From positions 1-52,294 of the forward strand of contig JBAUZZ010000553.1 of the NCBI GenBank assembly GCA_049585495.1: DNA of 52,294 nucleotides. Direction: 5' to 3'. Position 1 is the stretch's first letter, and each line of letters opens with the position of its first letter. The stretch is from Chthoniobacterales bacterium. Lineage in GTDB: Bacteria; Verrucomicrobiota; Verrucomicrobiia; Chthoniobacterales; JAFAMB01. Of this stretch, positions 2,370-47,888 are shown piece by piece. The translations under genes and the position numbers were made by a program. Under the pieces are notes generated by a model, which searched no databases, was not told the DNA's origin, and was given only the letters and a program-made list of their open reading frames with translations.

Positions 2370-3365
2370 ATGAAGGCGATTCGATTACATTCCCAGGGCG
2401 GGCCAGAGGTCCTGCAATTCGAGGATGTCCCACTGCCAGAGCTCAAACCCGGCGAGGCGCTTGTCCGCGTCAATGCGGCTGGTGTGAATTTTCTCGATGT
2501 CTACCAGCGGACCGGACTTTACAAGATACCCTTACCGTTTACGCCCGGCATGGAGGGTGCCGGCACCATCGAGCGCGTAAGCGGCGATAGTGAGCTTCAG
2601 CCGGGTGCGCGGGTGAACTGGACGATGCAGCCCGGTGCTTACGCGGAATTCGCCGCTGTGCCGGCCTGGAAGTTGGTTCAGCTCCCCGATGGTATCGACT
2701 TTCAGGCTGCCGCAGCCGCCATGCTTCAAGGCATGACTGCGCAGTATCTCTGCGAAACAACCTATCCGGTCAAAGCTGGTGATAGCGTACTAGTACACGC
2801 GGGTGCCGGTGGGGTGGGTCTCCTGCTGATACAACTCCTGCGGCGAAAGGGAGCCAAAGTCTTCACAACCGTTTCGACCGATGCGAAAGCTGCCCTGGCA
2901 AAAGAGGCAGGAGCCGATGAAGCGATCCTTTACACCAAAGAAGATTTTGTTGCAGCAGTAAAAGCCTTCACGAAGGGGCAAGGCGTCCAGGTTGTTTACG
3001 ATTCGGTCGGCGCTTCGACTTACGAAGGGAGTCTCAATGTTCTCCGGCCGCTGGGTATGCTGGTGCTCTTCGGCCAATCCGGCGGCCGCGTCCCGCCGAT
3101 TGATCCAATTAATCTTACCGACAAGGGATCCCTTTTTCTCGCCAGACCCAGCCTTGGTCATCACATTGCAGATCGAAACAGCTTGTTGGAGCGAGCCTCG
3201 AAAGTCCTGGGCTGGGTCGCAACCGGAGCTTTGAAAGTCCGGATTGGAAAGGTCTATCCGCTGTCCGGAGTTCCAGAGGCGCACCGCGACCTGGAAGCGC
3301 GGAAAACGACTGGCAAGCTGATTATCGACGTTACGGATGACCAGAAGGAGACTGTATCGGCGTAA
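2370..3365 (+). CDS. qor: NADPH:quinone oxidoreductase (zinc-type ADH superfamily)
   Basis: ORF 2244-3365 trimmed to the internal ATG at 2370. MKAIRLHSQGGPEVLQFEDVPLPELKPGEALVRVNAAGVNFLDVYQRTGLY plus the AGAGGVG nucleotide motif. The upstream extension overlaps a REP. Confidence 0.9.
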   Translation: MKAIRLHSQGGPEVLQFEDVPLPELKPGEALVRVNAAGVNFLDVYQRTGLYKIPLPFTPGMEGAGTIERVSGDSELQPGARVNWTMQPGAYAEFAAVPAWKLVQLPDGIDFQAAAAAMLQGMTAQYLCETTYPVKAGDSVLVHAGAGGVGLLLIQLLRRKGAKVFTTVSTDAKAALAKEAGADEAILYTKEDFVAAVKAFTKGQGVQVVYDSVGASTYEGSLNVLRPLGMLVLFGQSGGRVPPIDPINLTDKGSLFLARPSLGHHIADRNSLLERASKVLGWVATGALKVRIGKVYPLSGVPEAHRDLEARKTTGKLIIDVTDDQKETVSA

Positions 3366-3553
3366 CGGCGTTCCGGCGTGTCGGCGTAAGTCTTCTCGGT
3401 CTCGGATCGTCACTCACTGATCTGAGCTTGCGGAGTGTTGGCGATCCTAAGAAGGCTTGGCCAATCATGCTCAGAAAATCCTTTGCTGTTTTCATGGCCT
3501 GTGCCTCGTTTCTAAATGCACGCCGATACGCCCACACGCCGATACGCCGACAC
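3366..3553. repeat. inverted low-complexity arms of the GTCGGCGT-word type
   Basis: Left arm cggcgttccggcgtgtcggcgtaag (3366-3390). Right arm cacgccgatacgcccacacgccgatacgccgacac (3519-3553) is the reverse complement of gtgtcggcgtatcggcgtgtgggcgtatcggcgtg. Starts directly after the qor stop. Confidence 0.7.
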
Positions 3554-4787: not shown

Positions 4788-4840
4788 GTGTTGGCGTGCC
4801 CGGTCGAGGAAATGTGTCGGCGTGTCGGCGTATCGGCGTT
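4788..4840 (+). repeat. solo GTCGGCGT-word arm filling a convergent intergenic gap
   Basis: gtgttggcgtgcc...tgtgtcggcgtgtcggcgtatcggcgtt occupies all 53 nt between the stop codons at 4787 and 4841. Confidence 0.7.
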
Positions 4841-5614: not shown

Positions 5615-5650
5615 TCCATTACTCCAATACTCCATTACTCCACAGACCAG

Positions 5651-5778
5651 CTCGAATAAATTCTCGCCCTACCACTCTGCTTGCCCACCACTCTGACCCA
5701 TCCATTCTGACTCCTCGAATAAATTCTCGCCCTACCGCTCTGTTGGCCCTAACCCTCTGACCCCACCCTATCTGACTC
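5651..5778 (+). repeat. tandem duplication of ~63-65 bp, two units
   Basis: Units at 5651-5713 and 5714-5778. Both start with the identical 23-mer ctcgaataaattctcgccctacc and end in ctgactc. Located upstream of hom. Confidence 0.85.
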
Positions 5779-5838
5779 CTACTCGCCCTCGTTTTCCCCC
5801 TTTACACGCTGCGAAGATTCCGCGAAGGATCCTTCTTT

Positions 5839-9483: not shown

Positions 9484-9811
9484 CGCACAGAAGTCCGCGA
9501 AGACCTCACACAAAGGCCAGGAAGAAGATTTTACAGAAGCTCTCAAAGGCGGATTTGTAGGGCGGCTGGCTCAGCCGCCAGGAACACCCGGGCGAATCTC
9601 ACCCCAAACAGATCTCTCCAGCGCGTGAGCTACCCGCCGCAAGACCGGGAAACACGTTCCGACCATCGCATCGCCCCCACAGAACCCCAGAAGAGCCTTA
9701 CGCCAATGATCCTTCTCGACGGCTGAGCCAGCCGCCCTACAAAACCCTTTGAGTCCTTCGAGACCTTCTGTAAAAATTCCTTCGCGCTCTTCGTGTAAAA
9801 TCTTCGCGGCC
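9484..9811. repeat. composite MITE/REPIN-like element: ~65-bp terminal inverted repeats plus GTAG-head REP hairpins
   Basis: The left end ...gaagaagattttacagaagctctcaaaggcggatttgtagggcggctggctcagccgcc mirrors the right end ggctgagccagccgccctacaaaaccctttgagtccttcgagaccttctgtaaaaatt... The TIR words are shared with 33039-33338. Confidence 0.8.
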
Positions 9812-9840
9812 TTTTCCTAAACAGGCTAATTTCCTCCGCC

Positions 9841-12778: not shown

Positions 12779-12920
12779 GGGTAAGGGAGTTCCGGAGCGA
12801 GTGAGTAGTAAGTAGTTGTCAGTAGTCTGTAGTCTGTGATCTGTAATTTGTAATTATCACAGACCACAGAATACTGATTACTGACCACCGACAACTGACC
12901 ACTGTCTCCCGCCCTCTCAC
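12779..12920. repeat. arm-only low-complexity hairpin (CAGT/ACTGATT words, CTCTCACC tail), possible bidirectional terminator
   Basis: gtgagtagtaagtagttgtcagtagtctgtagtctgtgatctgtaat / ttgtaatt / atcacagaccacagaatactgattactgaccaccgacaactgaccactg...ccctctcacccc. Fills the convergent gap between tatC and the VWA gene and contains the stop at 12917. Confidence 0.8.
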
Positions 12921-19851: not shown

Positions 19852-19911
19852 ACTATTTGAAATGATTCGCCTCGCCTCTGCCAGCAGCCTTCAAACGCAG
19901 CAATCCGGCCT

Positions 19912-20024
19912 TGTTGGGCGCCTGGCCCAGGCGCCGCGACCGCCTCTGCGTCGAGGCGGGTCGCCGCACCAAGTTTTTGCCCTACCGAAGAATCGGCTCT
20001 CCGCCTAGGCGGATCGCCCTACCG
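19912..20024. repeat. cluster of REP-like hairpins
   Basis: ttgttgggcgcctggcccaggcgcc (degenerate head), gcgaccgcctc/gaggcgggtcgc hairpin, then ccctaccg...aatcggctctccgcctaggcggatcgccctaccg. Confidence 0.75.
19936..19978 (+). terminator. possible miaB terminator (11-12-bp GC stem with a distal T-run)
   Basis: gcgaccgcctc-tgcgtc-gaggcgggtcgc followed 9 nt later by TTTTT. The T-run is not adjacent to the stem, so this is weak. Confidence 0.3.
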
Positions 20025-20075
20025 CCCTCTCACCTTCAGCCTTTGCAGATTACTGATTACTGACTACTGATTACC
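20025..20075 (+). repeat. solo low-complexity arm (CTCTCACC + ATTACTGA words)
   Basis: ccctctcacc...attactgattactgactactgattacc immediately upstream of ORF 20085. Confidence 0.7.
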
Positions 20076-20084
20076 GTTTTTTGC

Positions 20085-20654
20085 ATGGACTACTATCCTC
20101 CGCGTATATACGAGCTGAGTTTGCACACGGTTGGCCTGATCGTCGGCCTTTTCCTCCTTGCCATCCACCTCTTTGCCTTGCTTCGGCCCAAGGAGACTCA
20201 GGCTTGGCTGGCGAAGCTGCCGCGCTCAAAGAGTTTCGGTATCTTTGTACTCGCACTCGATGCGGTCTGGTGCTTTTGGCTGGCCACAAATATGGACCTG
20301 GGCGAATTCTCGGGATTTCGCCGCCTGCTCCAGATCTGCATCCCAGTGCTGGCCATTCTGACCGTACTATTTGTTGACGAGTTTCTTTCGGCGCGAGCCC
20401 TTGGGATTCTCGCCTTGCTCGTGGCCGAGCCAATTTTATCCGCCGCCTTTCTCCGCCCGGAGATTGCGCGCCTGCTCCTTGTCACCCTCGCCTACGTCTG
20501 GCTCACCGTGGGCATGTTCTGGATTGGAAAACCGTACCTGCTGCGCGATCAGATCAGCTGGTTGACCCGTTCTGCGACTCGATGGCGCATCGCTGCTATC
20601 GCCGGCGTGGCCTACGGGGCAGTTGTCCTGTTTTGCACGCTGACGGTCTTCTGA
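20085..20654 (+). CDS. hypothetical integral membrane protein (about 5 TM)
   Basis: 189-aa ORF with regularly spaced hydrophobic helices. No recognisable family. Confidence 0.6.
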   Translation: MDYYPPRIYELSLHTVGLIVGLFLLAIHLFALLRPKETQAWLAKLPRSKSFGIFVLALDAVWCFWLATNMDLGEFSGFRRLLQICIPVLAILTVLFVDEFLSARALGILALLVAEPILSAAFLRPEIARLLLVTLAYVWLTVGMFWIGKPYLLRDQISWLTRSATRWRIAAIAGVAYGAVVLFCTLTVF

Positions 20655-20689
20655 AGAAGTGGCCGGGAGAGAGAAGTGGCCGGGAGAAA

Positions 20690-20719
20690 GAAGTGTCAGT
20701 GTCAGTTGGGGAGTGTCAG
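20690..20719 (+). repeat. left arm of a perfect 30-bp inverted repeat around the four-helix-bundle gene
   Basis: gaagtgtcagtgtcagttggggagtgtcag. The exact reverse complement is at 21167-21196. Embedded in a longer arm (20655-20722) that includes agaagtggccgggaga x2. Confidence 0.92.
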
Positions 20720-21054
20720 TCAGCTCGCTGAAGTGCTCGAATTAGGCCGTTGATTAGACGGCCGACTTCCCCCGACAAAGAGATGAACTCCTGACTCTCG
20801 ATCAGGTAACGGCGGCGCCGGGCGATGATCACTTGCGTTTTAACCTCGTGAAGGGATCCCCTCGCATATCCAACGGACTGCACGAATTCACCGGTCGTTA
20901 TCCGTCCGGCTCCCTCGGCTATATTGCTGGGTACGGATACGGCTGCCCGCCGCAGCTGACTGGTTAAGCCGTAGAGCTCGCAACTTGGGAAATCCATCGT
21001 CATTTCATATACCAGATCACACAGATCGATCGCTTTGCCAGGCCACCAGATCAC
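20716..21054 (-). CDS. four-helix-bundle protein (23S rRNA intervening-sequence protein family, Avd-like)
   Basis: 112 aa, GTG start. ...CELYGLTSQLRRAAVSVPSNIAEGAGR...ARGSLHEVKTQVIIA... matches the conserved core of this family. Confidence 0.85.
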   Translation of the reverse strand: MIWWPGKAIDLCDLVYEMTMDFPSCELYGLTSQLRRAAVSVPSNIAEGAGRITTGEFVQSVGYARGSLHEVKTQVIIARRRRYLIESQEFISLSGEVGRLINGLIRALQRAD

Positions 21055-21083
21055 GATAACTTTGCAAATTCATATACAGAAAA

Positions 21084-21112
21084 GTCTTATGTTATTATAT
21101 TAAGCCTGTCAA
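21084..21112 (-). promoter_or_regulatory. AT-rich promoter-like patch upstream of the four-helix-bundle gene
   Basis: Minus strand reads TTGACA (21112-21107), then TATAAT only 7 nt later (21099-21094), or TAAGAC at 17-nt spacing. No clean sigma-70 geometry. Confidence 0.2.
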
Positions 21113-21166
21113 GCGCTCTAGTCTCTCTCCCTGACACTTTCTCTCTCCCAACTGACACTCCCCCAC

Positions 21167-21196
21167 CTGACACTCCCCAACTGACACTGACACTTC
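21167..21196 (-). repeat. right arm of the perfect 30-bp inverted repeat
   Basis: ctgacactccccaactgacactgacacttc, the reverse complement of 20690-20719, within the longer CTGACAC/CTCTCC arm 21121-21221 that ends at the neighbour's stop codon. Confidence 0.92.
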
Positions 21197-21221
21197 CTCC
21201 CCAACCGACCTTCTTTCCCAC

Positions 21222-22349
21222 TCACACCTCCAGCACCTTCGGAAACCGCGACAACACTTTAAATCCTGTCTCCGCCACGACTCCATTATCCTCATGTCGA
21301 ACGCCGCCCAGCCCTGGAAAATACAGGCCTGGCTCGACCGTGAGCACCTGGCCGCGCTTGAAATCGGTGCGGGCGATTCTAGGCGACTCGTGAATTTCCA
21401 AGCCGAGCCCGTGGCCAAGGCCGTGAAAGAAACCAACCCAGCGCCCGTTCCGAATTTCCGTCGGATAACCGTTTGCCGTGAACATTTGGGTAACTTTCTC
21501 CTGCAGCGCATTCCCCGACTCGCCAACTCGGATATTTTCCAGTGCGTAGCTTTGACCATCCAGCACGGTGTGCCAGAGCTTCCGCTGGTTTTCATTCGCC
21601 AGGCCCCGAACGACGGTGCGCGTCAGGTCCCCGTGATAGCCCGTCTTAGCATCCCGCGGAAAGACATCCAAGATGATCAGGGAATTCGCCAACAGAGGCC
21701 CGCTTCCACGCTCGTGAGGATCACAAGCCTGCTCGCCCCCGGTCACGATGGTGTTGATCGGCAGACCGCCCGCGCGAACGATCGCACTGTCGATCTCGCC
21801 CCGCAGAATTTCAGAGGTTAGCCACAAACCGGCCCAGCGCAGCCGGCGTTTAGCGCGGATCTCCGCGGCTTTCAGTACTTCAATTCCGCGAGCGAGGCCA
21901 ATTTCCGTTATTCTGATGGCCTTCTCGATTTTTTTTATCTCTTCAGCGGTCTTAAACTCCCGATCACCCCAAAACGGACCCTGCACCGGGCTCAACGTGA
22001 TTTTGCGTTTCGCCAACTGCTGTGCCAACCCGAAGGGAAAGTCCGCAGGGACCTGGGCGCGTCTGACCCGGCGCTGGCGAAGGAAATGAGCAATCGTTTC
22101 CTCAACTGGTGGTTTTGTCTTCAGCCGCTTTTCTAAAGAACCCTCGATTGTCGAAAGAGAGACCACCTCATCCACCATCGCCTGTTTCTTACCCCGATCG
22201 ATCTCCAGGTCACTCAATACGATCGATCGCTTTCCTCTGTGTTGCAGAAACAGGAACGCATCCGGGGCAGGGAACTTTGTTGCGTAAAGCATATCGGCAG
22301 ATCCTTCGCTGGATGCGTAGATCAACCGCGGCAGGTTATTTTTAGGCAT
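21222..22349 (-). CDS. M24 family Xaa-Pro aminopeptidase
   Basis: Creatinase/prolidase-like N-domain plus the M24 metal ligand pattern (DVFPRD..GYHGDLTRT, HGLGHGLGLEIHE, LTVEPGLY). ATG at 22349 preferred over the TTG at 22382. Confidence 0.9.
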   Translation of the reverse strand: MPKNNLPRLIYASSEGSADMLYATKFPAPDAFLFLQHRGKRSIVLSDLEIDRGKKQAMVDEVVSLSTIEGSLEKRLKTKPPVEETIAHFLRQRRVRRAQVPADFPFGLAQQLAKRKITLSPVQGPFWGDREFKTAEEIKKIEKAIRITEIGLARGIEVLKAAEIRAKRRLRWAGLWLTSEILRGEIDSAIVRAGGLPINTIVTGGEQACDPHERGSGPLLANSLIILDVFPRDAKTGYHGDLTRTVVRGLANENQRKLWHTVLDGQSYALENIRVGESGNALQEKVTQMFTANGYPTEIRNGRWVGFFHGLGHGLGLEIHESPRIARTDFKRGQVLTVEPGLYFPGLGGVRHEDNGVVAETGFKVLSRFPKVLEV

Positions 22350-22406
22350 AGGCAATGACTTAACTTCGAACCCCTTCTCCAACCCCGAGTCAACGGAAAA
22401 TATATT

Positions 22407-22599
22407 TGTAGGGCGCCTGGCTCAGGCGCCGGGACAACCCGGGCCACTCGCGGCGCGCGGGGTGTGGCTCGCCGGAAGGCTCGCCATACCGCAGCTGCAA
22501 CAGGCCCACATCGGTGGGCAGAACAGGCTCCCGCCGAGCCGCGCCTAACGGCGCCGGGACAACCCGGGCCACCGAGGCGCCTGAGCCAGGCGCCCTACA
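22407..22599. repeat. REP doublet (GGCGCCTG variant) with an internal 23-nt direct repeat
   Basis: tgtagggcgcctggctcaggcgcc (22407-22430) and ggcgcctgagccaggcgccctaca (22576-22599). ggcgccgggacaacccgggccac occurs at both ~22424 and ~22549. Confidence 0.88.
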
Positions 22600-22935
22600 A
22601 AGCTATTTCCATGTAGCAATCCTACACAGAAAGAGATACTTGATCCGGCCTCCAATCGGTCGTCTCCGTTTCTGCCATCTCCTTCAACTCTCTGTACCAC
22701 CTCAGAGAGGCCCTATTTAAGCAGACAAGGCAGCAATCGCCTGCGAAAAAAGGCCTTTGTTCACGGTGGGTGTCTTAAGACTCCATAGTTCAAAATATGT
22801 AGCAGAACTACCGAAACGAGGATTGATTTTTACCGATCCCTTTGTACGATGACTCGGATTTTTTTCCCAATCCCCTATCATCGCGAGGCAGGCATCGCCC
22901 CAGCAGTTGCGTAGTCTGCCTCTTACAAAGCAATC

Positions 22936-24033
22936 ATGAGCGCTACAAATAAAGATCCCATCGGCCTGCCGATTCCCCGCAGGACTTTTATTCGCCGTAC
23001 CGCGACGCTGGCTGGCGCGACTGCGGCCATGACCATCGCACCTCACCGTCTTTTCGCTGCCGGGGCGCCAACCGTGGTCAATTCAATCCGGTCACTATCG
23101 AACCCGTACCACGCGACCTGGAATCAAGGTGGTCAGGCTTTTGCCAAGGCAATCGGCGCCGAATATGTCACCCTGGTAACGGAGGGTGACAGCGAAAAGG
23201 GCATCGCCGACATTCGTGCAATTCTGGCGAAGACCGGCGGCAACATGTGCCTCAATGTTGACCCGAACGACAGCCCGGACGCACGCCCGATCGTTGAAGC
23301 TTGTGTCAAGGCCGGCGCCTACGTCGTAACGCAATGGAATAAACCAGCCGATCTGCATCCCTGGGATTTCAACCCCAATTATGTCGCGCACATCTCCTTC
23401 GATGGCGTCCGGTACGGACAAGAGACCGCCAAAGCTTTGGTCCAAGCCATGGGCGGCTCAGGTGGGATTGTGGCGCTCGGCGGCATCATCTCCAATACGC
23501 CGGCAATCGAACGGAAGGCCGGCATGGAACAGGTTTTGAAAGATAGCTCGAATGTGAAATTACTCGATTTCCAAGTCGCGAACTGGAAGCCCAACGAAGC
23601 GTTCACGATCGTCAGTGCCTGGCTGACTCGATTCGGTGACCAGATCAAGGGTATTTGGGCCGCCAATGACGACATGGGTACGGGCGCACTGGAGGCGCTG
23701 CGAGCGGAAAACCTGGCCGGCAAGGTACCAATTACCGGTATTGACGGGATTAAGGTTGCGGTCGATGCAGTCCGCGCCGGAGAGTTCGCTGCCACCGTTT
23801 CTTGGGATCCGTTCTGGCAAGGCAGCATGGGGCTGGCGATTGGCTATGCCGCCAAGAGTGGGAAATTCGATCCGGCCAAAGAACCAAAGGAACACCGTGA
23901 ATTCTACGGAACCGGGGTCCTGGTCACGAAAGAGAATGCGGATGAGTTTTACAAGAGCCACGTTGAATCGGAACCAAAAGTTGACTTCACGGATTTGTGG
24001 AGTCGCGTGACCGGCCAGATTCGCGCAAGTTAG
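22936..24033 (+). CDS. sugar ABC transporter periplasmic binding protein (ribose/YtfQ-like) with a Tat-type signal
   Basis: RRTFIRRTATLAGATAAMTIAP twin-arginine leader. Type I periplasmic-binding fold features (WAANDDMGTGALEAL). Confidence 0.9.
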   Translation: MSATNKDPIGLPIPRRTFIRRTATLAGATAAMTIAPHRLFAAGAPTVVNSIRSLSNPYHATWNQGGQAFAKAIGAEYVTLVTEGDSEKGIADIRAILAKTGGNMCLNVDPNDSPDARPIVEACVKAGAYVVTQWNKPADLHPWDFNPNYVAHISFDGVRYGQETAKALVQAMGGSGGIVALGGIISNTPAIERKAGMEQVLKDSSNVKLLDFQVANWKPNEAFTIVSAWLTRFGDQIKGIWAANDDMGTGALEALRAENLAGKVPITGIDGIKVAVDAVRAGEFAATVSWDPFWQGSMGLAIGYAAKSGKFDPAKEPKEHREFYGTGVLVTKENADEFYKSHVESEPKVDFTDLWSRVTGQIRAS

Positions 24034-24063
24034 GGCTGCGGGTTTTGGGTCGTTATTGCGAGC

Positions 24064-24263
24064 GGTGAGGAGTGAGGGGGAAAACGGTAATCGGTGATCA
24101 GTAGTCAGTGATCAGTAATCCGTACTCAGTTACGTAGTCTGAGCAGTCAAAGTCATGACTCAAAATCGCAATTTCAGTCAACCGCCACAAAGACTGATCA
24201 CAGACCGCTGATTACCGATTACCGACGACTGATAACTACTGATTACTGATCTCACCTCTCACC
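24064..24263. repeat. degenerate low-complexity inverted-arm element with a ~100-nt core
   Basis: Left arm ggtgaggagtgaggggg...cggtaatcggtgatcagtagtcagtgatcagtaatc. Right arm actgatcacagaccgctgattaccgattaccgacgactgataactactgattactgatctcacctctcacc. Ends 1 nt before the start codon at 24265. Confidence 0.8.
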
Positions 24264-24264
24264 G

Positions 24265-24675
24265 ATGCCGAACAACGATCTCTCTCAACAAATGCGCGAA
24301 AAGGTTGCCGTCGTAACCGGCAGTACGCAAGGTTTGGGCGAAGCAACGGCGCGGCTCTTTGCTGAGCGCGGGGCCAGCGGGATAGTGATCTGTGGCCGTA
24401 ACGTCGATAGAGGTCAAAAAATCGCGGCGGAGTTGACGGAGCGGGGTTGTCCGACCGGGTTTGTTCCGGCCGATCTCAGCAAGCTGGAAGATTGCTCTGA
24501 GGTTGTTGCAGCTGCTGACCGCAGATTCGGGCGGATCGACGTACTGGTGAACTCGGCCGGGATCACTGACCGCGGGACAATCCTCGATACATCTCCCGAG
24601 CTTTTTGACCAAATTTTTGATACCAATGTCCGAGCCCCGTTTTTCGGGGGGATGCGGTTAGTGGTGAAAGGGTGA
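24265..24675 (+). pseudogene. 5'-truncated remnant of an SDR oxidoreductase (first ~128 codons only)
   Basis: [25 protein letters not shown]...LVNSAGIT...NVRAPFF are normal SDR N-terminal motifs. The reading frame then runs into repeat DNA (GGMRLVVKG, stop). The catalytic S..YxxxK half is absent. Confidence 0.7.
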
Positions 24676-24885
24676 TCAGTAGTCAGTTGGCAGTTGGCAG
24701 TTGGCAGTTGGCAGTAGTCAGTAATCGGTAATCAGTAATCGGGGTTCAATGAACTTGTGACTTTGCGTGATGATTTTGCCACCGCTCCAAAGACTGAATA
24801 CTGGATACTGATTGATACTGATTACTGACTACTGACTACCCCTTCCACCTCTCACCCTCTCACCCTCTCACCTCTCACCCTCCTC
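24661..24885. repeat. low-complexity inverted-arm element with (CAGTTGG)x4 and (CTCTCACC)x4 microrepeats
   Basis: Left arm 24661-24740 includes (cagttgg)4 at 24684-24711. Right arm 24793-24885 is actgaatactggatactgattgatactgattactgactactgactacc followed by cacctctcaccctctcaccctctcacctctcaccctcc. Confidence 0.85.
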
Positions 24886-24896
24886 CCCCTCTCCCA

Positions 24897-25937
24897 ATGG
24901 ACCCTCAAACCAGCAGCCAGCCCTCGCGAACTGGTGAGATGAGCCCGGCACCCGCGGTGCGGAATCACGGGCAAGGATCGATAGAAAGATTCTTCGGCCG
25001 GCTTAAGCGCTTCGCACCGTTTCTGGCCTTGATTGCGCTCGCGCTCGTCATTGGCGTACTGAATCCGCGCTTCTTTGAATTCAATAATCTCGTTCGAATT
25101 GCGAACCTGGCGGCGATTCCGCTGGTGCTGGCGCTGGGAGAGACGTTTGTAATTCTCCTCGGCAGCATCGACCTGTCAGTGGAGGGCGTATTGGCGGTAG
25201 GCTCGGTGGTGATCAGCCTGCTCGTCCGCAACGACAGCAACACCAACGCCCTGGGTTGGCTCGGGCCGGTCGCGGCCCTGATCGCGTGCGCCGTGCTTGG
25301 CTGTTTAAACGGTCTGGTCCACGTCAACCTGCGCATCCCGTCCTTCATGGCCACGCTTGGCATGTGGTTCATCGGCGTTGGTTTGGCAACGCTAGCTCTG
25401 GGCGGGTCGAGTGTGCGTGTACTGGATCCCGGCATTCGGGCCTTGGCGCTTACCCGATTGCTTGAATTTCCGCTGGCTGTCTGGGTGGCGCTCGCCGCAC
25501 TCGGCGCCACCTGGGTGTTCGAGCGATTCACGACTATTGGCCGTTACGTGTACGCGATTGGAGGTGGCGAGGACCTGGCGGCGTTGTCGGGCATTCCGGT
25601 TAAACGAGTGAAGATTATTGTTTTCACACTCGCGGGCGCCCTATACGGCTTGGCTGGGCTCCTGGCCGCGGCGCAGCTGGGCCAGGGGAACGCATTGATC
25701 GGAAGTGGTCGACTTTTCTTCACAATCACTGCCGTGGTGGCAGGAGGTTCTGCGCTGACCGGGGGCGAAGGCGGCGTATTAAACACTCTGGTTGGCGTAC
25801 TAATCATTGCTGTCCTCGCCAATGGCATGGTGCTGCTGGGCATTTCGCCTTATCTGCAACAGGCGGTACAGGGGCTCTTGATAATCGTCGCAGTTGCCCT
25901 TTCCATCGACCGGGCCCGCCTCAAGATTGTGAAATAG
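24897..25937 (+). CDS. sugar ABC transporter permease (RbsC/YtfT-like)
   Basis: 346-aa polytopic ORF with GSIDLSVEG and GG.G...G..GA branched-sugar permease motifs. The N-terminal ~40 aa may be an extension. Confidence 0.9.
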   Translation: MDPQTSSQPSRTGEMSPAPAVRNHGQGSIERFFGRLKRFAPFLALIALALVIGVLNPRFFEFNNLVRIANLAAIPLVLALGETFVILLGSIDLSVEGVLAVGSVVISLLVRNDSNTNALGWLGPVAALIACAVLGCLNGLVHVNLRIPSFMATLGMWFIGVGLATLALGGSSVRVLDPGIRALALTRLLEFPLAVWVALAALGATWVFERFTTIGRYVYAIGGGEDLAALSGIPVKRVKIIVFTLAGALYGLAGLLAAAQLGQGNALIGSGRLFFTITAVVAGGSALTGGEGGVLNTLVGVLIIAVLANGMVLLGISPYLQQAVQGLLIIVAVALSIDRARLKIVK

Positions 25938-25940
25938 GCG

Positions 25941-27443
25941 ATGCTCTCGATCAGTCACGTAAGTAAAGCCTTCGCCGGCGTTCAGGCGCTCGACGATGTG
26001 AGCATCGAGATCAGCGAAAATGAAGTCGTTGGTCTGGTCGGCGAGAATGGCGCGGGAAAATCGACCCTTATGCGGATCCTTGCGGGTGTCTATACGCCGG
26101 ATCGCGGCTCACTCCGACTCGATGGCCAGCCGGTCATTCTACGAAAGCCAAGCGATGCCAATGCATCCGGGATAGGAATCGTGTTCCAGGAACAGTCCCT
26201 ACTACCAAACCTCAGCGTCGCCGAGAACATCTACCTCGGTCAGGAAGCGGAGTTTGTCCGGCTCGGCCTGATCGACCGGCGCCAACTGAATAGCGCCGCA
26301 CGGCGGCAGCTTGCCAAGGTCCAGGTTGACATCGATCCGCGTACCCGGACTTCTGAGCTGAACTTTGCCGCTCGTCAAATGGTTGAGCTCGCCAAGGCGC
26401 TGGCGCTGGAAGAACGCACTGACCGGCATCTGGTGATTCTGTTGGATGAACCGACTTCAGTGCTTGAGCAACGCGATATTGATATTCTGTTTGCGCGCAT
26501 TCGCGAGCTGAAACGCCGGGCCAGCTTTATTTTCGTCTCACATCGCCTCGACGAAGTTCTGGCGATGAGCGACCGCGTTTACGTAATGAAGGACGGCCGG
26601 GTGGTTGCGGAGATGCCAATCATCAACGCCACCATACCACAACTCCACCAGCTGATGGTCGGCCGCGACCGACATGCCGAGTACTATCGAGAGTCGCGCC
26701 AAAAGCCGCCTCGGCCCAAAATCGTGATGCAGGCCGCCGGTCTGACCGTAAGCGGTGTGTACCGGGACGTAGACTTCACCCTGCACCAGGGAGAGGTTCT
26801 CGGCGTGGCCGGCGTCATCGGCTCCGGCCGGGAAGGGCTCACGCGTACGCTTTTCGGGTTTCTTCCACAAACCCGCGGCACACTTCAAGTTAAGGGGCGG
26901 CAAGTCCGTTTGACCTCTCCGTCACAGGCGGCCGATCTCGGGATCGGTTATCTTCCACGCGAAAGGCGGGTCGAAGGGCTGGTCCTGCCTTTATCTGTGG
27001 CTGTAAACGTGACCCTTGCCAGTCTGTCAACGGTCAAAGTTAGCGGTGCGATCAATCCGCCACGCGAGCGCGACCTCGCGAGGCGCTGGGTAAAAAAACT
27101 CCGAATCCGCACGCCAAATGTCGACGCGCTCTGCCTCAATCTCAGCGGCGGTAACCAGCAGAAAGTCGTCCTCTGCAAGTGGATGAATGCTCGCTCTCAA
27201 ATTTTGATTTTTGATCACCCTACCCGGGGACTCGATGTCGGCGCCAAGGAAGAGGTGTATGAATTGATGCGCGATCTTTCGGAGAGCGGGATAGCGATAA
27301 TCCTTACGGCTGACACCTTGGAGGAAACGATCGGATTGTCCCACTCTATTCTGGTAATGCGTGACGGGCAGATAACCGCGCGATTCGAGGCGTCTCCGGG
27401 CGCCAAGCCCTCTCAGATCCAGCTCATCCGCCACATGGTGTAA
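25941..27443 (+). CDS. sugar ABC transporter ATP-binding protein (two fused ABC domains, RbsA/YtfR-like)
   Basis: Walker A GENGAGKST, signature LSGGNQQKV, and a duplicated ABC cassette of 500 aa. Confidence 0.95.
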   Translation: MLSISHVSKAFAGVQALDDVSIEISENEVVGLVGENGAGKSTLMRILAGVYTPDRGSLRLDGQPVILRKPSDANASGIGIVFQEQSLLPNLSVAENIYLGQEAEFVRLGLIDRRQLNSAARRQLAKVQVDIDPRTRTSELNFAARQMVELAKALALEERTDRHLVILLDEPTSVLEQRDIDILFARIRELKRRASFIFVSHRLDEVLAMSDRVYVMKDGRVVAEMPIINATIPQLHQLMVGRDRHAEYYRESRQKPPRPKIVMQAAGLTVSGVYRDVDFTLHQGEVLGVAGVIGSGREGLTRTLFGFLPQTRGTLQVKGRQVRLTSPSQAADLGIGYLPRERRVEGLVLPLSVAVNVTLASLSTVKVSGAINPPRERDLARRWVKKLRIRTPNVDALCLNLSGGNQQKVVLCKWMNARSQILIFDHPTRGLDVGAKEEVYELMRDLSESGIAIILTADTLEETIGLSHSILVMRDGQITARFEASPGAKPSQIQLIRHMV

Positions 27444-27489
27444 GCAAATGAAGAGGCAATTACGCCTATCCGCCAGAGTTCAGCGTCCA

Positions 27490-27780
27490 CCTACGCGCGT
27501 CGACTTAACAACACAGAATAGCCGCGATAAAGCGCCGAAGGCGCGAAATATGGTAGCCTGGGGCGCAAGCCCCAGGATGACGTTTTTAGAAAATCGCGTC
27601 CGGTCTGAAGGACCGGCAGAAACCTGGAACGTCCAACGCCTGGTGGGGGAATCACATTTCTGGCGCACCTTCAGTGCGCGACGCCTTTTTCGATCCTTAA
27701 CCCAGGGCTGCGCCCTGGGCTACCATATTTCGCGCCTTCCGCGCTTAGACCTCTACTACAAGCTTAGGTCGACGCGTATG
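27490..27780. repeat. ~290-bp near-palindromic MITE/REPIN-like element inside the ABC operon
   Basis: Inner inverted repeat 27531-27575 (agcgccgaaggcgcgaaatatggtagcctggggcgcaagccccagg) versus 27701-27745. Outer acgcgcgtcgac/gtcgacgcgt. Internal TGAAG-loop hairpins ccggtc-tgaag-gaccgg and gcgcac-cttca-gtgcgc. Confidence 0.85.
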
Positions 27781-27835
27781 GCATTCCCCGGACGACGGCG
27801 GAAGAACGATATCAAACCCATGACAACCGAACAAG

Positions 27836-28810
27836 ATGCAGAGCGATAGTGCCACTGCCAGAAGCTGGACCTCTCTCGCCAGCCGCATGCGCACGAGCGC
27901 CCCCTTTCTTGTATTGATCGGACTCGTGGCGCTCATTGGCATCTTAAAGCCAGGCTTTGTCAGCATCGACACTTTGGTGGTTGTAATGGCGGACACCGCA
28001 ACATTGTTCATCCTCGCGGCCGGCGTGACCTTCGTTGTGATGCTTGGAGGGATCGATCTTTCGATTCAGGCTGTCGCATCCTTCAGCAGCGTCATCGTGG
28101 CTGTGATGCTTAACCGAGCCGGGTACTGGACATTCCCCGCCGCCCTGCTGGCTGGTCTGGTGATCGGCGCCTTTAGTGGCATAGTCCACGTCTGGCTACG
28201 GATCCCATCGTTCATTGTAACCCTGGCGACCAGCGGACTGGCAGCCGCAGCTGCGCTCATCCTGTCGGAAGGGCGCTCAATCACTATCGGCGAAAGCGGC
28301 CGAGTGTTCTTGAGCTGGATAGTCGGACGCGTCTTCGGGGTGCCGAGCGTGATTATCGTCGGCGCAGCCGTCGGCGGCATCGGGATTTTGACGCAGCGTT
28401 ACACCTCCTTTGGTCGCTACAGTACCGCAATCGGAGCCGGCGAAGCGGCAACTTGGGCTTCAGGTGTTAAGGTTAATCGCCAAAAGGTCATTGCGTACGC
28501 CTTGTCGGCAACGCTGGCCGCGCTGGCAGGGATTCTTCTTGCCGGTCGACTGAGCAGCGGCTCACCGACGCTGGCGAACGAGCTTCTGCTACCTGCGATC
28601 GCAGCCGTCGTTGTTGGCGGAACAGCCATCACTGGCGGCGCGGGCGGGATCGGGCGCACGGCCATCGGTGCCCTGATAATCTCTGTCGTCCGCGTCGGGA
28701 TGACCTTTGTTGGAATCAATATTTTCGCGCAGCAGATCGTCTTCGGAGTGGTTCTTATCATGGCCGTCGCCGCGACGATCGACCGCAGCAAGATACTCAT
28801 TGTCAAATAA
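27836..28810 (+). CDS. sugar ABC transporter permease, second subunit (YjfF-like)
   Basis: 324-aa polytopic ORF, paralogous to 24897-25937 (GGIDLSIQA, GGTAITGGAGG). Confidence 0.9.
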   Translation: MQSDSATARSWTSLASRMRTSAPFLVLIGLVALIGILKPGFVSIDTLVVVMADTATLFILAAGVTFVVMLGGIDLSIQAVASFSSVIVAVMLNRAGYWTFPAALLAGLVIGAFSGIVHVWLRIPSFIVTLATSGLAAAAALILSEGRSITIGESGRVFLSWIVGRVFGVPSVIIVGAAVGGIGILTQRYTSFGRYSTAIGAGEAATWASGVKVNRQKVIAYALSATLAALAGILLAGRLSSGSPTLANELLLPAIAAVVVGGTAITGGAGGIGRTAIGALIISVVRVGMTFVGINIFAQQIVFGVVLIMAVAATIDRSKILIVK

Positions 28811-28839
28811 GCCGCCGAGAGGTAATTGGGTGTCGGCGT

Positions 28840-29631
28840 ATGGACCTCGAGCTAAAAGGCAAGGTGGCCGTCATCACCGGCGGTAGCGTGGGCATCGGCT
28901 TGGCAGTCGCAGAGGGGCTCGCCGCGGAGGGCGTCAATGTGGTTCTGGCTGCGCGTCAGGCCGAGCGGGCGCATGCGGAAGCGAAGCGGGTTGGCGACCA
29001 TTTTAAAGTGCGCGCAATTGGTGTTCCCGCCGATGTGGTGAAAGCGGAAGACGTTGGCAGAGTCATTTCGGTCGTCAAGCAGGAGTTTGGCGGCGCGGAT
29101 ATTCTGATAGACAACGCTGGTACCGGCAGCAACGAGACCATCATGGAGGCCCCTGATGAAAAATGGCAGTACTATTGGGATCTCCACGTGATGGCTGCCG
29201 TCCGGCTCGCTCGTGGTCTAGTGCCGTTGATGCGACAGCGCGGCGGCGGCGTAATCCTCCACAACGCCTCCATCTGCGCCGTTCAGCCGCTTTGGTACGA
29301 GCCGATCTACAACGTCACAAAAGCGGCGCTGATGATGTTTTCAAAAACGCTCGCCACAGAAGTCGTCAAAGACAATATCCGCGTCAACTGCATAAATCCC
29401 GGTTTGATTCTGACCCCCGACTGGATCAAAACCGCGAAGCAGTTGACCGCCGATAAAGGGGGCGACTGGGAGGGCTACCTCGCCTCGGTCGCGCGTGAGC
29501 ATGCGCCGATTGATCGCTTCGGCACGCCCCAAGAGCTTGCGAGCTTTTTCGTGTTCCTCTGTTCGAAACATGCCAGTTATTCGGTCGGATCGACTTACTT
29601 CGTCGACGGCGGGATGCTGAAAGTGGTTTAG
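28840..29631 (+). CDS. SDR family oxidoreductase
   Basis: KVAVITGGSVGIG, NAG, S...YNVTKAA catalytic triad context, 263 aa. Confidence 0.9.
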   Translation: MDLELKGKVAVITGGSVGIGLAVAEGLAAEGVNVVLAARQAERAHAEAKRVGDHFKVRAIGVPADVVKAEDVGRVISVVKQEFGGADILIDNAGTGSNETIMEAPDEKWQYYWDLHVMAAVRLARGLVPLMRQRGGGVILHNASICAVQPLWYEPIYNVTKAALMMFSKTLATEVVKDNIRVNCINPGLILTPDWIKTAKQLTADKGGDWEGYLASVAREHAPIDRFGTPQELASFFVFLCSKHASYSVGSTYFVDGGMLKVV

Positions 29632-33338: not shown

Positions 33339-33360
33339 ATGGGGTCAGCCGAATCTCTTA

Positions 33361-33389
33361 CTGACACTTCTCCCAACTGGCACTGACAC
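33361..33389 (+). repeat. solo CTGACAC-word arm
   Basis: ctgacacttctcccaactggcactgacac uses the same vocabulary as arm 21121-21221. Lies just beyond the stop at 33407. Confidence 0.65.
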
Positions 33390-33406
33390 AATCTCTCGCG
33401 CTTCGT

Positions 33407-35431: not shown

Positions 35432-35528
35432 AGTCGACGCGTCTGATTAGCGGGCAAGCTTACCGTATCGAGCCAGTATGTTTTCGCAAGAGACCGCCTT
35501 GGGCGGATCGTATCGCGTTGCGGCAGAG

Positions 35529-35620
35529 TCGGCGGCTGCTCTGCCGGAGCTTCGCCCTCCAGTGACGTTTTCCCTGGCATTTCAGCGATTAGGGCGAAGC
35601 TCCGGCTGAGCCGCTGCCGA
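35529..35620. repeat. REP doublet of the GGGCGAAGCTCC family, heads inward
   Basis: tcggcggctgctctgccggagcttcgccctccag (35529-35562) and tagggcgaagctccggctgagccgctgccga (35590-35620). Confidence 0.8.
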
Positions 35621-35732
35621 CCCTGCTGCACACCGAAATCCCCCAACCGCTTGACAAATGCTTTTCATCGCGCTTCATCTATGCTCCTTCCCGATTAGTC
35701 AGATCTAGAGATGATGTCGCGACCCTCCCCCT

Positions 35733-40519: not shown

Positions 40520-40649
40520 GCTGCGAAGCATCACGGGTTTGTAGGGCGCGTGGCTCACGCGCTTGAACTAGGGGTCTTTAATTTTATTTACCGAGCAAGC
40601 TCTCCTGATCCGGGCAAGGATGACCCAGCGGCTGACCCAGCCGCCCTGC
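40520..40649 (+). repeat. ~130-nt REPIN-like unit, upstream inverted copy flanking dgt
   Basis: gctgcgaagcatcacgggtttGTAGGGCGCGTGGCTCACGCGC...ggtctttaattttatttaccgagcaagctctcctgatccgggcaaggatg...GGCTGACCCAGCCGCCCTGC. Its reverse complement recurs at 41988-42101. Confidence 0.88.
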
Positions 40650-40713: not shown

Positions 40714-41979
40714 GTGACACGCTTGAATTCGAATGGCTTTTACAATCAGTTCGATCTCGCCTGCCGGGAACATCGCGAGCCGGACGATTATCGGACGCCC
40801 TTCCAAACCGATCGCGACCGAATCATCTACAGCTCGGCGTTTCGGCGCTTACAGGCAAAAACGCAGGTCTTTCTTTCCGGCGAGTTTGATTTCTATCGGA
40901 CCCGGTTAACTCATTCACTGGAGGTGGCACAAATTGGGCGCGCCATCTGCTCGTACCTGCAACAGACCTCGCCGTATCTGAATGATGACTTTTATATTGA
41001 CCCCGATCTGGTTGAAGCGATTTGCCTGGCTCACGATCTGGGCCACTCTCCCTTTGGTCACGCTGGCGAAAGAACACTCCACCAATTGATGTTGCCCTTC
41101 GGCGGCTTCGAAGGAAACGCACAGAGCTTGCGGATTATCGCAGAGACCATCTACCCCGGTCTTGAGTCGCGACGTGGGATGAATCCGACACGCGCCTTCT
41201 TCGATGGGATTTTAAAGTATAAGTCTCTGTTCCGGGAAAACCCGTCGGCCAGCAACCACTTTATCTACGACGAACAGCTCTTTTTGCGTGATTTTGTCTG
41301 GCCGGATATAAGCCCCGGTGGCGGCTCGGATCGATACCAGTACCGAAGTCTCGAGTGCGAACTCATGGACTGGGCGGACGACACAGCTTATTGTCTGAAC
41401 GATCTGGTCGATGGCATCAACGCTGGCTTTCTTCGCCTGGAACGGGTGGAGCGCTGGGCAGAACGGCAAACTTTAGCTGGCGATCAGGCTCGCCATGCCG
41501 CATCAGTCTTGTCCGCCATCAGGGAGCACAAAGCAGAAGCCAGATTCAGTCGTCGTATTGGGCTTTTTATTCGATCAACCTCGTTGGTGGAACGATCCAC
41601 GCCGTTCTCGACCGCCAGCAGCAGGTACCGATTTGGGCTTTTCGTCGACCCGTCGATCCGCGCTGAGGCCGATCTCTATAAAAAGCTGTCCCAAGATCTG
41701 GTCTTTGATCACTCGCAGTTGCACCAACTCGAGCGCAAAGGGCGCATTATCCTGGAAGGGATTTTCGCTGCGTTTGCTGAAAGCTACTTAACCAATGCCG
41801 GGTTTGGTCTCCGGCTTTTACCCGAGGCTTTTGATCGGATTATTCGCTCCAAGCCTGACCGTCGCGTCCGAGCCCGGCTGCTCTGTGACTATGTGGCAGG
41901 GATGACAGACGGTTTCGCGCTTCGAACTTATAAGCGTTTGTTCGACCCCGATTTTGGGTCCATCCTCGATCTCGGCTGA
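40714..41979 (+). CDS. dgt: dGTP triphosphohydrolase-like HD-domain protein
   Basis: GTG start. YRTPFQTDRDRIIYSSAFRRLQAKTQVF, RLTHSLEVAQIGR, CLAHDLGHSPFGHAGE (HD motif). Confidence 0.9.
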   Translation: MTRLNSNGFYNQFDLACREHREPDDYRTPFQTDRDRIIYSSAFRRLQAKTQVFLSGEFDFYRTRLTHSLEVAQIGRAICSYLQQTSPYLNDDFYIDPDLVEAICLAHDLGHSPFGHAGERTLHQLMLPFGGFEGNAQSLRIIAETIYPGLESRRGMNPTRAFFDGILKYKSLFRENPSASNHFIYDEQLFLRDFVWPDISPGGGSDRYQYRSLECELMDWADDTAYCLNDLVDGINAGFLRLERVERWAERQTLAGDQARHAASVLSAIREHKAEARFSRRIGLFIRSTSLVERSTPFSTASSRYRFGLFVDPSIRAEADLYKKLSQDLVFDHSQLHQLERKGRIILEGIFAAFAESYLTNAGFGLRLLPEAFDRIIRSKPDRRVRARLLCDYVAGMTDGFALRTYKRLFDPDFGSILDLG

Positions 41980-41987
41980 CTCGGCTT

Positions 41988-42101
41988 GTAGGGCGGCTGG
42001 GTCCATCCCTGCCCAGATCAGGAGAGCTTGCTCGATAAGTAAAATTAAAGACCTTCCGGCGCGTGAGCCACGCGCCCTACAAACCGGCATGCTTCGCAGC
42101 G
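41988..42101 (-). repeat. ~115-nt REPIN-like unit, downstream inverted copy flanking dgt
   Basis: GTAGGGCGGCTGGGTCcatccctgcccagatcaggagagcttgctcgataagtaaaattaaagacc...GCGCGTGAGCCACGCGCCCTACaaaccggcatgcttcgcagcg. Confidence 0.88.
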
Positions 42102-47611: not shown

Positions 47612-47632
47612 AGTTTAGTGTCAGTTGTTGAG

Positions 47633-47851
47633 CCTGGAGGGCGACGCTCCGCCGTCGCCGGATCTGCAGAAGTTAGTTTATGCGTTAGGTTTACTATTAA
47701 CATGGTCAGTTTCTGGACATCGTTACCCTGCGCTAACTAACCGCTCGGTTCTCGGGTTGCATCTAGCAGGCACACCAAATCTGGCTCTGCGACTTAAAGT
47801 TAATGTTTAACTCCCATGGATTCCGGCGACGGCGGAGCGTCGCCCTTCAGG
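47633..47851. repeat. REP doublet (GGCGACG...CGTCGCC family) with an AT-rich 160-nt spacer, between lpdA and pdhC
   Basis: cctggagggcgacgctccgccgtcgccgg (47633-47661) and ccggcgacggcggagcgtcgcccttcagg (47823-47851). Confidence 0.85.
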
Positions 47852-47888
47852 CCTTCCGGATTGACCATTAACCACTGACACCGGACGC

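Follow-up and report, generated by a model that had tools for sequence, protein, structure and literature searches.

Close counterparts of the element reported here are intervening sequences (IVSs) of bacterial rRNA genes. The IVS of Coxiella burnetii carries an open reading frame (ORF, 'S23p') and has a 28-bp terminal stem which is cut by RNase III (PMC4990558). The IVSs of Coxiella and Leptospira contain ORFs of the same family, and their 28-bp terminal stems are cut midway along their length (PMC4990558). Mobility of the ORF-containing IVSs has long been suspected and a mobility enzyme is not known (PMC4990558). In the present study we analysed a stretch of 52,294 nucleotides from a Chthoniobacterales bacterium (contig JBAUZZ010000553.1, positions 1 to 52,294), to which we refer as the window. 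The region 20655–21221 of the window contains, on the minus strand, a gene for a four-helix-bundle (4HB) protein of the same family as the IVS ORFs (PF05635/TIGR02436). This gene is enclosed by two inverted arms built from short repeated words, and the whole unit is located between two protein-coding genes.

Arrays of seven-nucleotide words are the second known feature with which the locus can be compared. The words CCCCAGT, CAACAGT and TTGGTCA of the cyanobacterial short tandemly repeated repetitive (STRR) sequences were reportedly described by Mazel et al. in 1990. In Xanthomonas, arrays of the word GGGAATC form 70–75 convergent inverted pairs per genome which lie close to the ends of the upstream ORFs, and the supplementary table of the authors puts array #15 across the start annotated for XCC0516 (Rehm et al. 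2015, PMC4692102), which is the crystallised member of the protein family treated here. According to the same authors a detailed literature on heptameric repeats did not exist, and the repeats were linked by them to no gene (PMC4692102).

We suggest that the region 20655–21221 is one copy of a widespread and mobile single-gene foldback cassette which is the intergenic counterpart of the ORF-bearing rRNA IVSs, and we consider this reading fairly probable. The architecture of the cassette appears to be undescribed. In the searchable full texts no paper was found that links the PF05635/TIGR02436 family to flanking tandem-repeat hairpins; most subscription journals lie outside these texts and a prior description is possible.

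Anatomy of the cassette and of its homologues

The product of the cassette gene matches PF05635 with 102.4 bits (cut-off 33.8, E 1.9e-29) and TIGR02436 with 106.6 bits (cut-off 24, E 7e-31). A further match is the Xanthomonas protein XCC0516, of which a crystal structure exists (PDB 2GSC, E 2e-20). The arms of the cassette include a perfect inverted repeat of 30 nt (20690–20719 and 21167–21196, 447 nt apart, 100% complementary). This is the sole fully complementary pair of at least 30 nt that was detected when the whole window was scanned for inverted repeats (seed 12, arms of at least 18 nt, separation up to 1500 nt). The left arm (Table 1) begins 1 nt past the stop of the membrane-protein gene with 2.5 copies of the 17-mer AGAAGTGGCCGGGAGAG (20654–20695), continues with GAAGTGTCAGTGTCAGTTGGGGAGTGTCAG, which is the perfect repeat, and holds the stop codon of the 4HB gene (20716–18). 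The right arm is composed of CTGACAC and CCCCAACT words with a 15-nt compound unit at 21143–21188, contains the other copy of the perfect repeat and stops 1 nt ahead of the codon that terminates the co-oriented M24 peptidase gene. On both sides the words are anchored by AGT (for example, AGTGTC and AGTTGGGG); they are arranged in irregular units of 6, 8, 15, and 17 nt with a mean of ∼7. As the stop codons of the two neighbours end at 20654 and start at 21222, the spacer is filled exactly by the cassette. When the minus strand of the region was folded as RNA, a free energy of −230 kcal/mol (z = −5.35) was obtained and no shuffled sequence folded as well. The predicted closing stem of ∼55 bp encloses the entire insert.

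Most of this anatomy had been recognised in an original prediction which was made from the letters of the sequence alone. The family assignment of the gene, the perfect 30-bp inverted repeat, the arms of short words reaching to both neighbouring stop codons, the stop codon of the ORF inside the left arm and the hairpin around the whole gene were all borne out, and so was the statement that the literature holds no such architecture, as far as the searchable full texts are concerned. The original prediction had furthermore pointed to an AT-rich, promoter-like patch inside the loop. The patch is present, but a promoter on the sense strand is unsupported: in the AT-rich loop promoter-like hexamers occur only on the strand opposite to the 4HB gene, and in the corresponding spacers of the homologous loci described below a sigma-70-like site on the sense strand was found in 0 of 71 cases, with 1.8 expected. 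Between the M24 gene and the cassette no terminator-like site was found. As the M24 gene is located upstream of the cassette in the same orientation, its read-through would transcribe the entire cassette.

The window was also searched for genes and RNAs which could account for the cassette. No transposase, reverse transcriptase (RT) or recombinase domain is present among the 40 largest ORFs of the window, which agrees with the original prediction in the case of the transposase. No rRNA match was obtained with Rfam and no PADLOC defence-system family matched at E ≤0.01. These data bear on the possibility that the gene is the remnant or satellite of a diversity-generating retroelement (DGR), that is, an Avd accessory gene that lost its RT. 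The 4HB protein is indeed a distant homologue of bAvd (model PF22296, E 0.0064, below the cut-off), and near DGR reverse transcriptases no Pfam family is more common than PF05635 (PMC10053308). Nevertheless, such an origin is very improbable in our opinion, as an RT is lacking among the 40 ORFs and as the cassette is tightly bounded by housekeeping genes here and at most other loci.

The architecture of the locus is the norm for this 4HB subfamily across phyla. Homologues with 42–58% identity were analysed at 80 genome loci on one-genome-per-species contigs from Acidobacteriota, Planctomycetota, Chloroflexota, Verrucomicrobiota, Proteobacteria, Bacteroidota, Clostridia, and Gemmatimonadota. 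The score used was the best ungapped inverted match between the 300-nt flanks of the gene with a threshold of 14, and shifted control positions were scored for the genome set and for a metagenome set. A score of at least 14 was found at 63 of the 80 genome loci (shifted controls 1/291), at 56 of the 69 testable JGI metagenome loci (0/184) and at 13 of 15 viral-contig loci. About 80% of the homologous genes are bracketed by inverted repeats, and this holds for many bacterial phyla. Carriers include the isolate genomes of Zoogloea oryzae NBRC 102407 and Nevskia soli DSM 19509, so that the cassette is not an assembly artefact. None of the more than 160 homologous loci matches the E. coli rrn sequences.

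A period of 7 was the best period in 43 of 81 upstream and 45 of 81 downstream flanks, as compared to 17 of 443 control windows. Within one locus the words of the two arms are identical or one base apart; between loci the words are different. Thus, the inverted arms that the original prediction required of further members of the family are indeed found, with words specific to each locus. The phased words have the consensus N-G-T-C-A-G-T with a conserved AGT core, which is present in 57% of the words and in 16% of letter-shuffled words, and the total information of the words amounts to 5.56 bits versus 3.66 ± 0.08 bits after shuffling. The polarity is fixed on either strand, the 5′ arm being G-rich and the 3′ arm being C-rich; the 5′ arm is G-rich in 65 of 72 gene-bearing and in 14 of 15 cargo-less pairs. 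Altogether 97 adjacent inverted array pairs were found in 775 kb. Of these, 72 enclose a 4HB gene with a median loop of 421 nt and 15 have loops of 20–119 nt, and most of the rest are formed by two neighbouring elements, the right arm of the first preceding the left arm of the second. Between correctly polarised array pairs of these 775 kb no cargo other than the 4HB gene was found. Three features had escaped the original prediction, namely the 7-nt period with the AGT core, the fixed polarity of a G-rich 5′ arm and a C-rich 3′ arm, and the connection with the known heptamer repeats (STRR and the GGGAATC arrays of Xanthomonas). We also considered that the arm words could be derived from the upstream stop codon and rejected this idea, since the words show no enrichment of stop trinucleotides.

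From stop to start the cassette takes up the whole intergenic spacer, in the window and elsewhere. For this comparison the loci were oriented by the 4HB gene and the neighbouring genes of the other loci were assigned by a longest-ORF heuristic. The 3′ end of the neighbour faces the cassette on the upstream side in 46 of 55 cases (co-oriented) and on the downstream side in 23 of 55 cases (convergent). When the cassette lies within a co-directional gene pair, the sense orientation of its gene (27 cases) prevails over the antisense orientation (4 cases). The upstream stop codon clusters at about −10 to +12 nt from the outer edge of the 5′ arm, and in 40 of 71 loci a long downstream ORF can start −4 to +30 nt from the 3′ arm. 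Inside the cassette the 5′ arm and the start codon are separated by a spacer with a median length of 64 nt (71 loci), and the median distance from the 4HB stop to the 3′ arm is 12 nt. In all 71 loci (71/71) the GC content of the ORF is lower than that of the flanks.

The orientation of the gene decides on a further explanation, namely that the locus is an inverton in which the inverted repeat flips the 447-bp segment and thereby switches the gene or a promoter. A perfect 30-bp repeat around a short segment with an AT-rich patch would fit an inverton, as would the promoter-like hexamers, which point outward on the plus strand. We rejected this explanation, which is hardly credible given that the orientation is the same in all four independent contigs of the locus and in all 8 orthologous pairs (see below), that it is biased toward that of the upstream gene in co-directional pairs (27 versus 4) and that no recombinase is found nearby.

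Inheritance and relocation of gene and arms

The cassette was gained or lost at a syntenic site. The order of the genes for the miaB-like protein, the membrane protein and the M24 peptidase is kept in the relatives. Contigs that encode a 100% identical membrane protein have an identical cassette. In three relatives with a membrane protein that is 87%, 74%, or 71% identical (L085, L086, and L089) the site contains neither the gene nor the arms. The same spacer is occupied by a pair of REP-like (repetitive extragenic palindromic) sequences in L085 and by unrelated sequence in L086, and it is 91 bp long in L089. Thus, empty sites exist in relatives, in line with the cassette that was originally predicted, and the arms are not an ordinary conserved spacer.

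Between strains the arms change by whole repeat units. The contig of a second strain, L172, has four differences to the window in 7.1 kb and three of these are in the cassette or in a hairpin: one 17-nt unit of the left arm is lost, 5 nt are deleted in the cargo-less hairpin hpB (Table 1), and 1 nt is deleted in a C5 run of the ORF (position 834, window ∼20769), which results in a 99-aa 4HB product. This last deletion is possibly a real frameshift and possibly a homopolymer error of long reads. In a 98% relative (L084, 3570–3654) we observed a variant of the left arm in which GTGTCAGTGAGAG replaces GTGGCCGGGAGAG and which is followed by REP-like sequence. This contig ends inside the repeat, as short-read assemblies tend to at such repeats, and two other contigs, L178 and L179, are too short for the comparison.

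Gene and arms are inherited and relocated as one unit. Whenever two 4HB proteins are at least 80% identical, their loci have the arm word in common. Eight of these locus pairs are orthologous loci with the same orientation of the cassette. In the other pairs the flanks are dissimilar and the nucleotide homology is confined to the arms and the gene. In Acidobacteriota, loci with non-homologous flanks have a common word in 23 of 37 pairs at a protein identity of at least 65% and in 45 of 427 pairs below 50% identity (p = 2e-12, the pairs not being independent of each other). The best match of the 4HB protein of the window in the genome, metagenome, and viral collections is 58% identical, so that the movement of this particular cassette lineage is not traceable.

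The 4HB protein is under purifying selection, with dN/dS values of 0.03–0.16 in pairs whose dS ranges from 0.5 to saturated. Between orthologues the arms match or exceed the ORF in conservation, and in pairs with greater divergence they also exceed the spacer, although this is weak evidence because repeats align easily. Both observations would also be expected of a resident host gene which is not mobile and around which the inverted repeat evolved in place as a terminator, an insulator or a stabiliser of the mRNA. In addition, gene, arms, and orientation were kept through speciation in the 8 orthologous pairs, and neither a mobility enzyme nor a target-site duplication was found (see below for the latter). 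On the contrary, the syntenic site is empty in relatives at 71–87% identity, and near-identical units of arms plus gene are present at unrelated loci. Furthermore, the low GC content of the ORF relative to its flanks at all loci (71/71), the copies on viral contigs and the occurrence of 4HB genes among the strain-unique genes in Arthrospira (PMC8700078) do not point to a resident gene. We therefore regard this explanation as quite unlikely.

Several observations weigh against the mobile cassette which we favour. A target-site duplication was not detected at 68 loci, the longest direct repeat at the junctions having a mean length of 3.10 nt as compared to 3.10 nt in shuffled sequences. The mismatches in the arms are G·U-compatible on the sense strand in 87 cases and on the antisense strand in 73 cases, besides 121 transversions (p = 0.30). 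Without such a preference for the sense strand there is no sign of selection on pairing in the RNA. In addition, a transposase, an RT or a recombinase is not found in the 40 largest ORFs of the window. The locus pairs compared above are not independent of each other, and the paralogues L030 and L045, which are from one metagenome-assembled genome (MAG) and 79% identical, have different words, which argues against a strict specificity of protein and word. The arms in the window itself, with their spacing of 6, 8, and 17 nt, are not clean heptamers. Finally, the promoter scan was limited to the sigma-70 consensus, and the neighbour calls rest on the longest-ORF heuristic; this heuristic alone cannot produce the left/right asymmetry of the neighbours.

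Cargo-less hairpins and other repeats in the window

Table 1. Position of the cassette, its neighbouring genes and related arrays in the window
Feature	Position	Strand	Remarks
Left arm	20655–20719		3′ arm relative to the gene; plus strand G-rich
4HB protein gene	20716–21054	−	112 aa, GTG start, PF05635/TIGR02436
AT-rich spacer	21055–21121	−	67 nt, from 5′ arm to start codon
Right arm	21122–21221		5′ arm relative to the gene; plus strand C-rich
M24 metallopeptidase gene	21222–22382	−	Upstream of the 4HB gene, co-oriented
Membrane-protein gene	20085–20654	+	189 aa, without Pfam hit; convergent neighbour; synteny anchor
Cargo-less hairpin	3360–3549		8-nt words GTCGGCGT / ACGCCGAT; arms 28 nt, 82% complementary; 132-nt loop
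Solo array	4796–4839		Words as in hairpin 3360–3549
Solo array	5615–5790
Cargo-less heptamer hairpin	12807–12903		Arms 41 nt, 73% complementary; 1-nt loop
Solo C-rich-type heptamer array	20043–20074		(GATTACT)n; just upstream of the membrane-protein gene
hpA, cargo-less foldback	24060–24262 (hairpin 24079–24237)		Outer GGTGAGG, inner GTAATCA/GTGATCA heptamers; loop ∼76 nt
hpB, cargo-less foldback	24655–24896 (hairpin 24666–24845)		Direct copy of hpA
Solo array	33340–33400		Words common to the right arm of the main cassette (CTGACACTTCTCCCAACTGGCACTGACAC)

The original prediction had counted at least seven further occurrences of the same architecture without intact cargo in the window. This number is roughly right, as we found four hairpins and three to four solo arrays (Table 1), but several of the other repeats are unrelated REP-like palindromes. 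Some of the other arrays in the window are clean heptamers. The first hairpin begins at the stop codon (3365) of an alcohol-dehydrogenase-like gene, and the hairpin 12807–12903 fills the spacer of the convergent tatC and VWA genes. The hairpins hpA and hpB are 73% identical to each other, loops included, and have the loop motif CCGCnCMAAAGACTGA in common. The right outer array of hpB, (CCTCTCAC)n, extends to the ATG of a permease gene at 24897. This unpaired array abutting a start codon is an example of how the growth of the arms up to the coding boundaries is explicable by slippage.

The two hairpins hpA and hpB flank a truncated short-chain-dehydrogenase (SDR) fragment (24265–24675) which comprises only the N-terminal ∼127 aa, and together with this fragment they are inserted between the substrate-binding and the permease gene of a sugar ABC (ATP-binding cassette) operon. 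This arrangement resembles a composite element, with a captured gene fragment carried by two copies of the foldback. At five homologous loci (L018, 2306–2885; L006, L012, L029, and L032) one or two additional cargo-less heptamer hairpins are stacked directly upstream of the gene-bearing cassette, which suggests local duplication or repeated insertion.

A second 4HB gene or a decayed copy was not found when a profile of the 81 homologues was compared with the six-frame translation of the window. The idea that the other hairpins contain decayed 4HB genes was rejected, because the profile found only the one gene. Similarly, an apparent bracketing of an aminotransferase gene (3519–3553 and 4814–4839) turned out to be a cargo-less hairpin and a separate solo array of opposite polarity and not a cassette.

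The abundance of such elements raises the question whether the heptamer hairpins are the primary and independent entity, arising by slippage or another host process, with the 4HB gene being a passenger whose landing or survival is favoured within their loops; the arms would then not belong to an element of the gene itself. In the window the gene-bearing cassette is outnumbered about 8 to 1 by cargo-less hairpins and solo arrays, and 186 arrays are present in Xanthomonas campestris pv. campestris (PMC4692102). Neither hpA nor hpB, which are copies of one another, contains a gene, and a 4HB remnant is undetectable in the loops. In hpB the outer array has clearly grown at its present site, and the different words of the 79% identical paralogues L030 and L045 fit this explanation as well. 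However, the words track the relatedness of the proteins despite unrelated flanks (23/37 versus 45/427), the homology between relocated copies spans the arms and the gene, ∼80% of the genes are bracketed, and no cargo other than the 4HB gene occurs in correctly polarised pairs. In our view independent hairpins are therefore an unlikely explanation, even though this one has to be taken more seriously than the other alternatives. On the more speculative view that the 4HB protein is the factor of the element itself (see below), the cargo-less hairpins and solo arrays of the window would be non-autonomous or decayed relatives.

Further repeats of the window belong to other families. A REP-like family with the core TTTGTAGGGCG(C/G)CTGGCTCAG(G/C)CGCC forms inverted pairs in several spacers. 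Such pairs are located at 9551–9746, 22398–22608, 19900–19990, and 40634–40653/41984–42003 of the window and at 1885–1975 of L085; in this 87% relative the pair occupies the spacer in which the window has its 4HB cassette. In L086 and L089 the M24 gene is directly followed by an SDR gene which is orthologous to 28840–29631 of the window (78–81% identity). In the window the ∼6 kb between the M24 and the SDR gene (22383–28839) consist of a REP-like pair and the sugar ABC transporter operon. Between the ABC ATPase gene and the second permease gene there is an inverted pair of Acido-Lenti-1 matches (RF01687; 27531–27576 on the minus strand and 27701–27745 on the plus strand, 57.6 and 41.6 bits, gathering score 37), so that Acido-Lenti-1 may here represent a palindromic repeat and not an sRNA gene.

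A 50-nt inverted repeat which is not of low complexity (40573–40622 and 42004–42053, 92% complementary) brackets a complete gene for an HD-domain phosphohydrolase (40714–41979, HD plus HD_assoc). A second low-complexity family has units of ∼24 nt (ATTTTTACAGAAGC...TCTCAGAG) and is present as a 47-nt inverted repeat with a 195-nt loop (33042–33088/33284–33330) and as a tandem array (9754–9813). Finally, two GC-rich inverted pairs are found in spacers, namely at 35519–35630 (40 nt, 88% complementary, 32-nt loop) and at 47632–47852 (31 nt, 97% complementary, 159-nt loop); they are unlike both the heptamer and the REP-like family.

Proposed mechanism and comparison with known systems

The anatomy of the cassette might give a hint how the element persists. 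The element is terminated by inverted arrays of short tandem words, which canonically have 7 nt and an AGT core and of which the 5′ array is the G-rich one, and its only cargo is a 4HB protein of ∼110 aa, a homologue of the DGR protein Avd and of the pentameric XCC0516. We suggest that the cassette gene is transcribed by read-through from the co-oriented upstream gene and that in the read-through RNA the arms pair into the stem of ∼55 bp which would close off the insert. By analogy with the IVSs of Coxiella and Leptospira this stem could be a substrate of RNase III, and cutting by RNase III would make the insert tolerable inside transcription units. More speculatively, the 4HB protein might bind the repeat arms as DNA or RNA, and it might serve as the factor for maintenance or spread of the element with the catalysis being left to host enzymes.

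These considerations can be extended to a general proposal, which we put forward only tentatively since we regard it as possible rather than probable. PF05635 genes with inverted heptamer arms would form a new class of mobile cassettes without a canonical transposase, in which the AGT-core arms are recognised by an Avd-like pentamer that drives their spread or licenses it. The ORF-bearing rRNA IVSs would be the same element residing in rRNA genes, and the STRR and the Xanthomonas GGGAATC pairs would be non-autonomous copies or footprints of it.

PF05635/TIGR02436 is among the most abundant bacterial protein families without known function. The origin of the ORF-bearing rRNA IVSs, the meaning of the STRR sequences and the excess of heptamer repeats in bacterial genomes have been unexplained for about 30 years. 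If the association is general, the IVS proteins, the IVS stems, and the heptamer repeats would become one problem with a concrete anatomy, that is, AGT-core heptamer arms, a fixed polarity, a placement from stop to start and a single Avd-like cargo. This problem could then be tested directly in carriers that are in culture, for example Xanthomonas campestris (XCC0516), Nostoc PCC 7120, Zoogloea oryzae, or Nevskia soli. The cassette could show how a selfish insert stays harmless in operons by means of a bracketing RNA stem, and it could reveal a nucleic-acid-binding role of Avd-like proteins outside retroelements. It would also explain frequent assembly breaks and spurious small ORFs in soil metagenomes.

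When the cassette is compared to known systems, DGRs are related by their accessory protein. The protein bAvd binds nucleic acid and the RT. It has a homologous four-helix-bundle fold, and XCC0516, the closest solved relative of the 4HB protein, is a pentamer as is bAvd. Unlike in a DGR, none of the 40 largest ORFs of the window has an RT domain; no specific search was made for template and variable repeats.

With transposons and MITEs (miniature inverted-repeat transposable elements) the cassette has in common the terminal inverted repeats, the polymorphism of presence and absence and the copies at unrelated sites. The inverted termini of the foldback (FB) elements of Drosophila are likewise built from short tandem repeats. 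As in foldback transposons, MITEs and REP sequences or bacterial interspersed mosaic elements (BIMEs), the termini are inverted, cargo-less copies outnumber the coding ones and the location is intergenic, beside stop codons. As in these elements, two copies can flank a captured fragment, as is the case for hpA and hpB with the SDR fragment between them. In contrast to them, the cassette is without a target-site duplication, a transposase or a RAYT protein, and the words diverge between copies. Integron cassettes resemble it as small promoterless units with a single ORF and a hairpin-forming imperfect inverted repeat (attC) which are co-oriented with an external promoter. However, in integrons attC is found at one end only and the cassettes form arrays next to intI, and neither is true of the 4HB cassette.

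The described heptamer repeats resemble the arms of the cassette family in being intergenic tandem arrays of 7-nt words near the 3′ end of the upstream ORF, in often forming convergent inverted pairs and in their variable copy number. Two of the three STRR words, CCCCAGT and CAACAGT, have the (C)AGT core of the cassette words. On the other hand, the heptamer repeats were not described together with a gene and were read as G-quadruplex formers or as markers for fingerprinting, and the cassette words vary by lineage instead of there being one word per genome.

Agreement is also found with the 23S rRNA IVSs. Both have the same protein family, both are enclosed by terminal inverted repeats which form a long stem (28 bp in Coxiella, ∼55 bp predicted here), and in both the ORF is in sense orientation within the host transcript, which in the case of the cassette is the predicted read-through RNA. 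In contrast to the IVSs, which reside in helix 9, 25, or 45 of the rRNA, the cassette is located between protein-coding genes, and cleavage by RNase III, which has been demonstrated for the IVSs, is suggested for the cassette by analogy.

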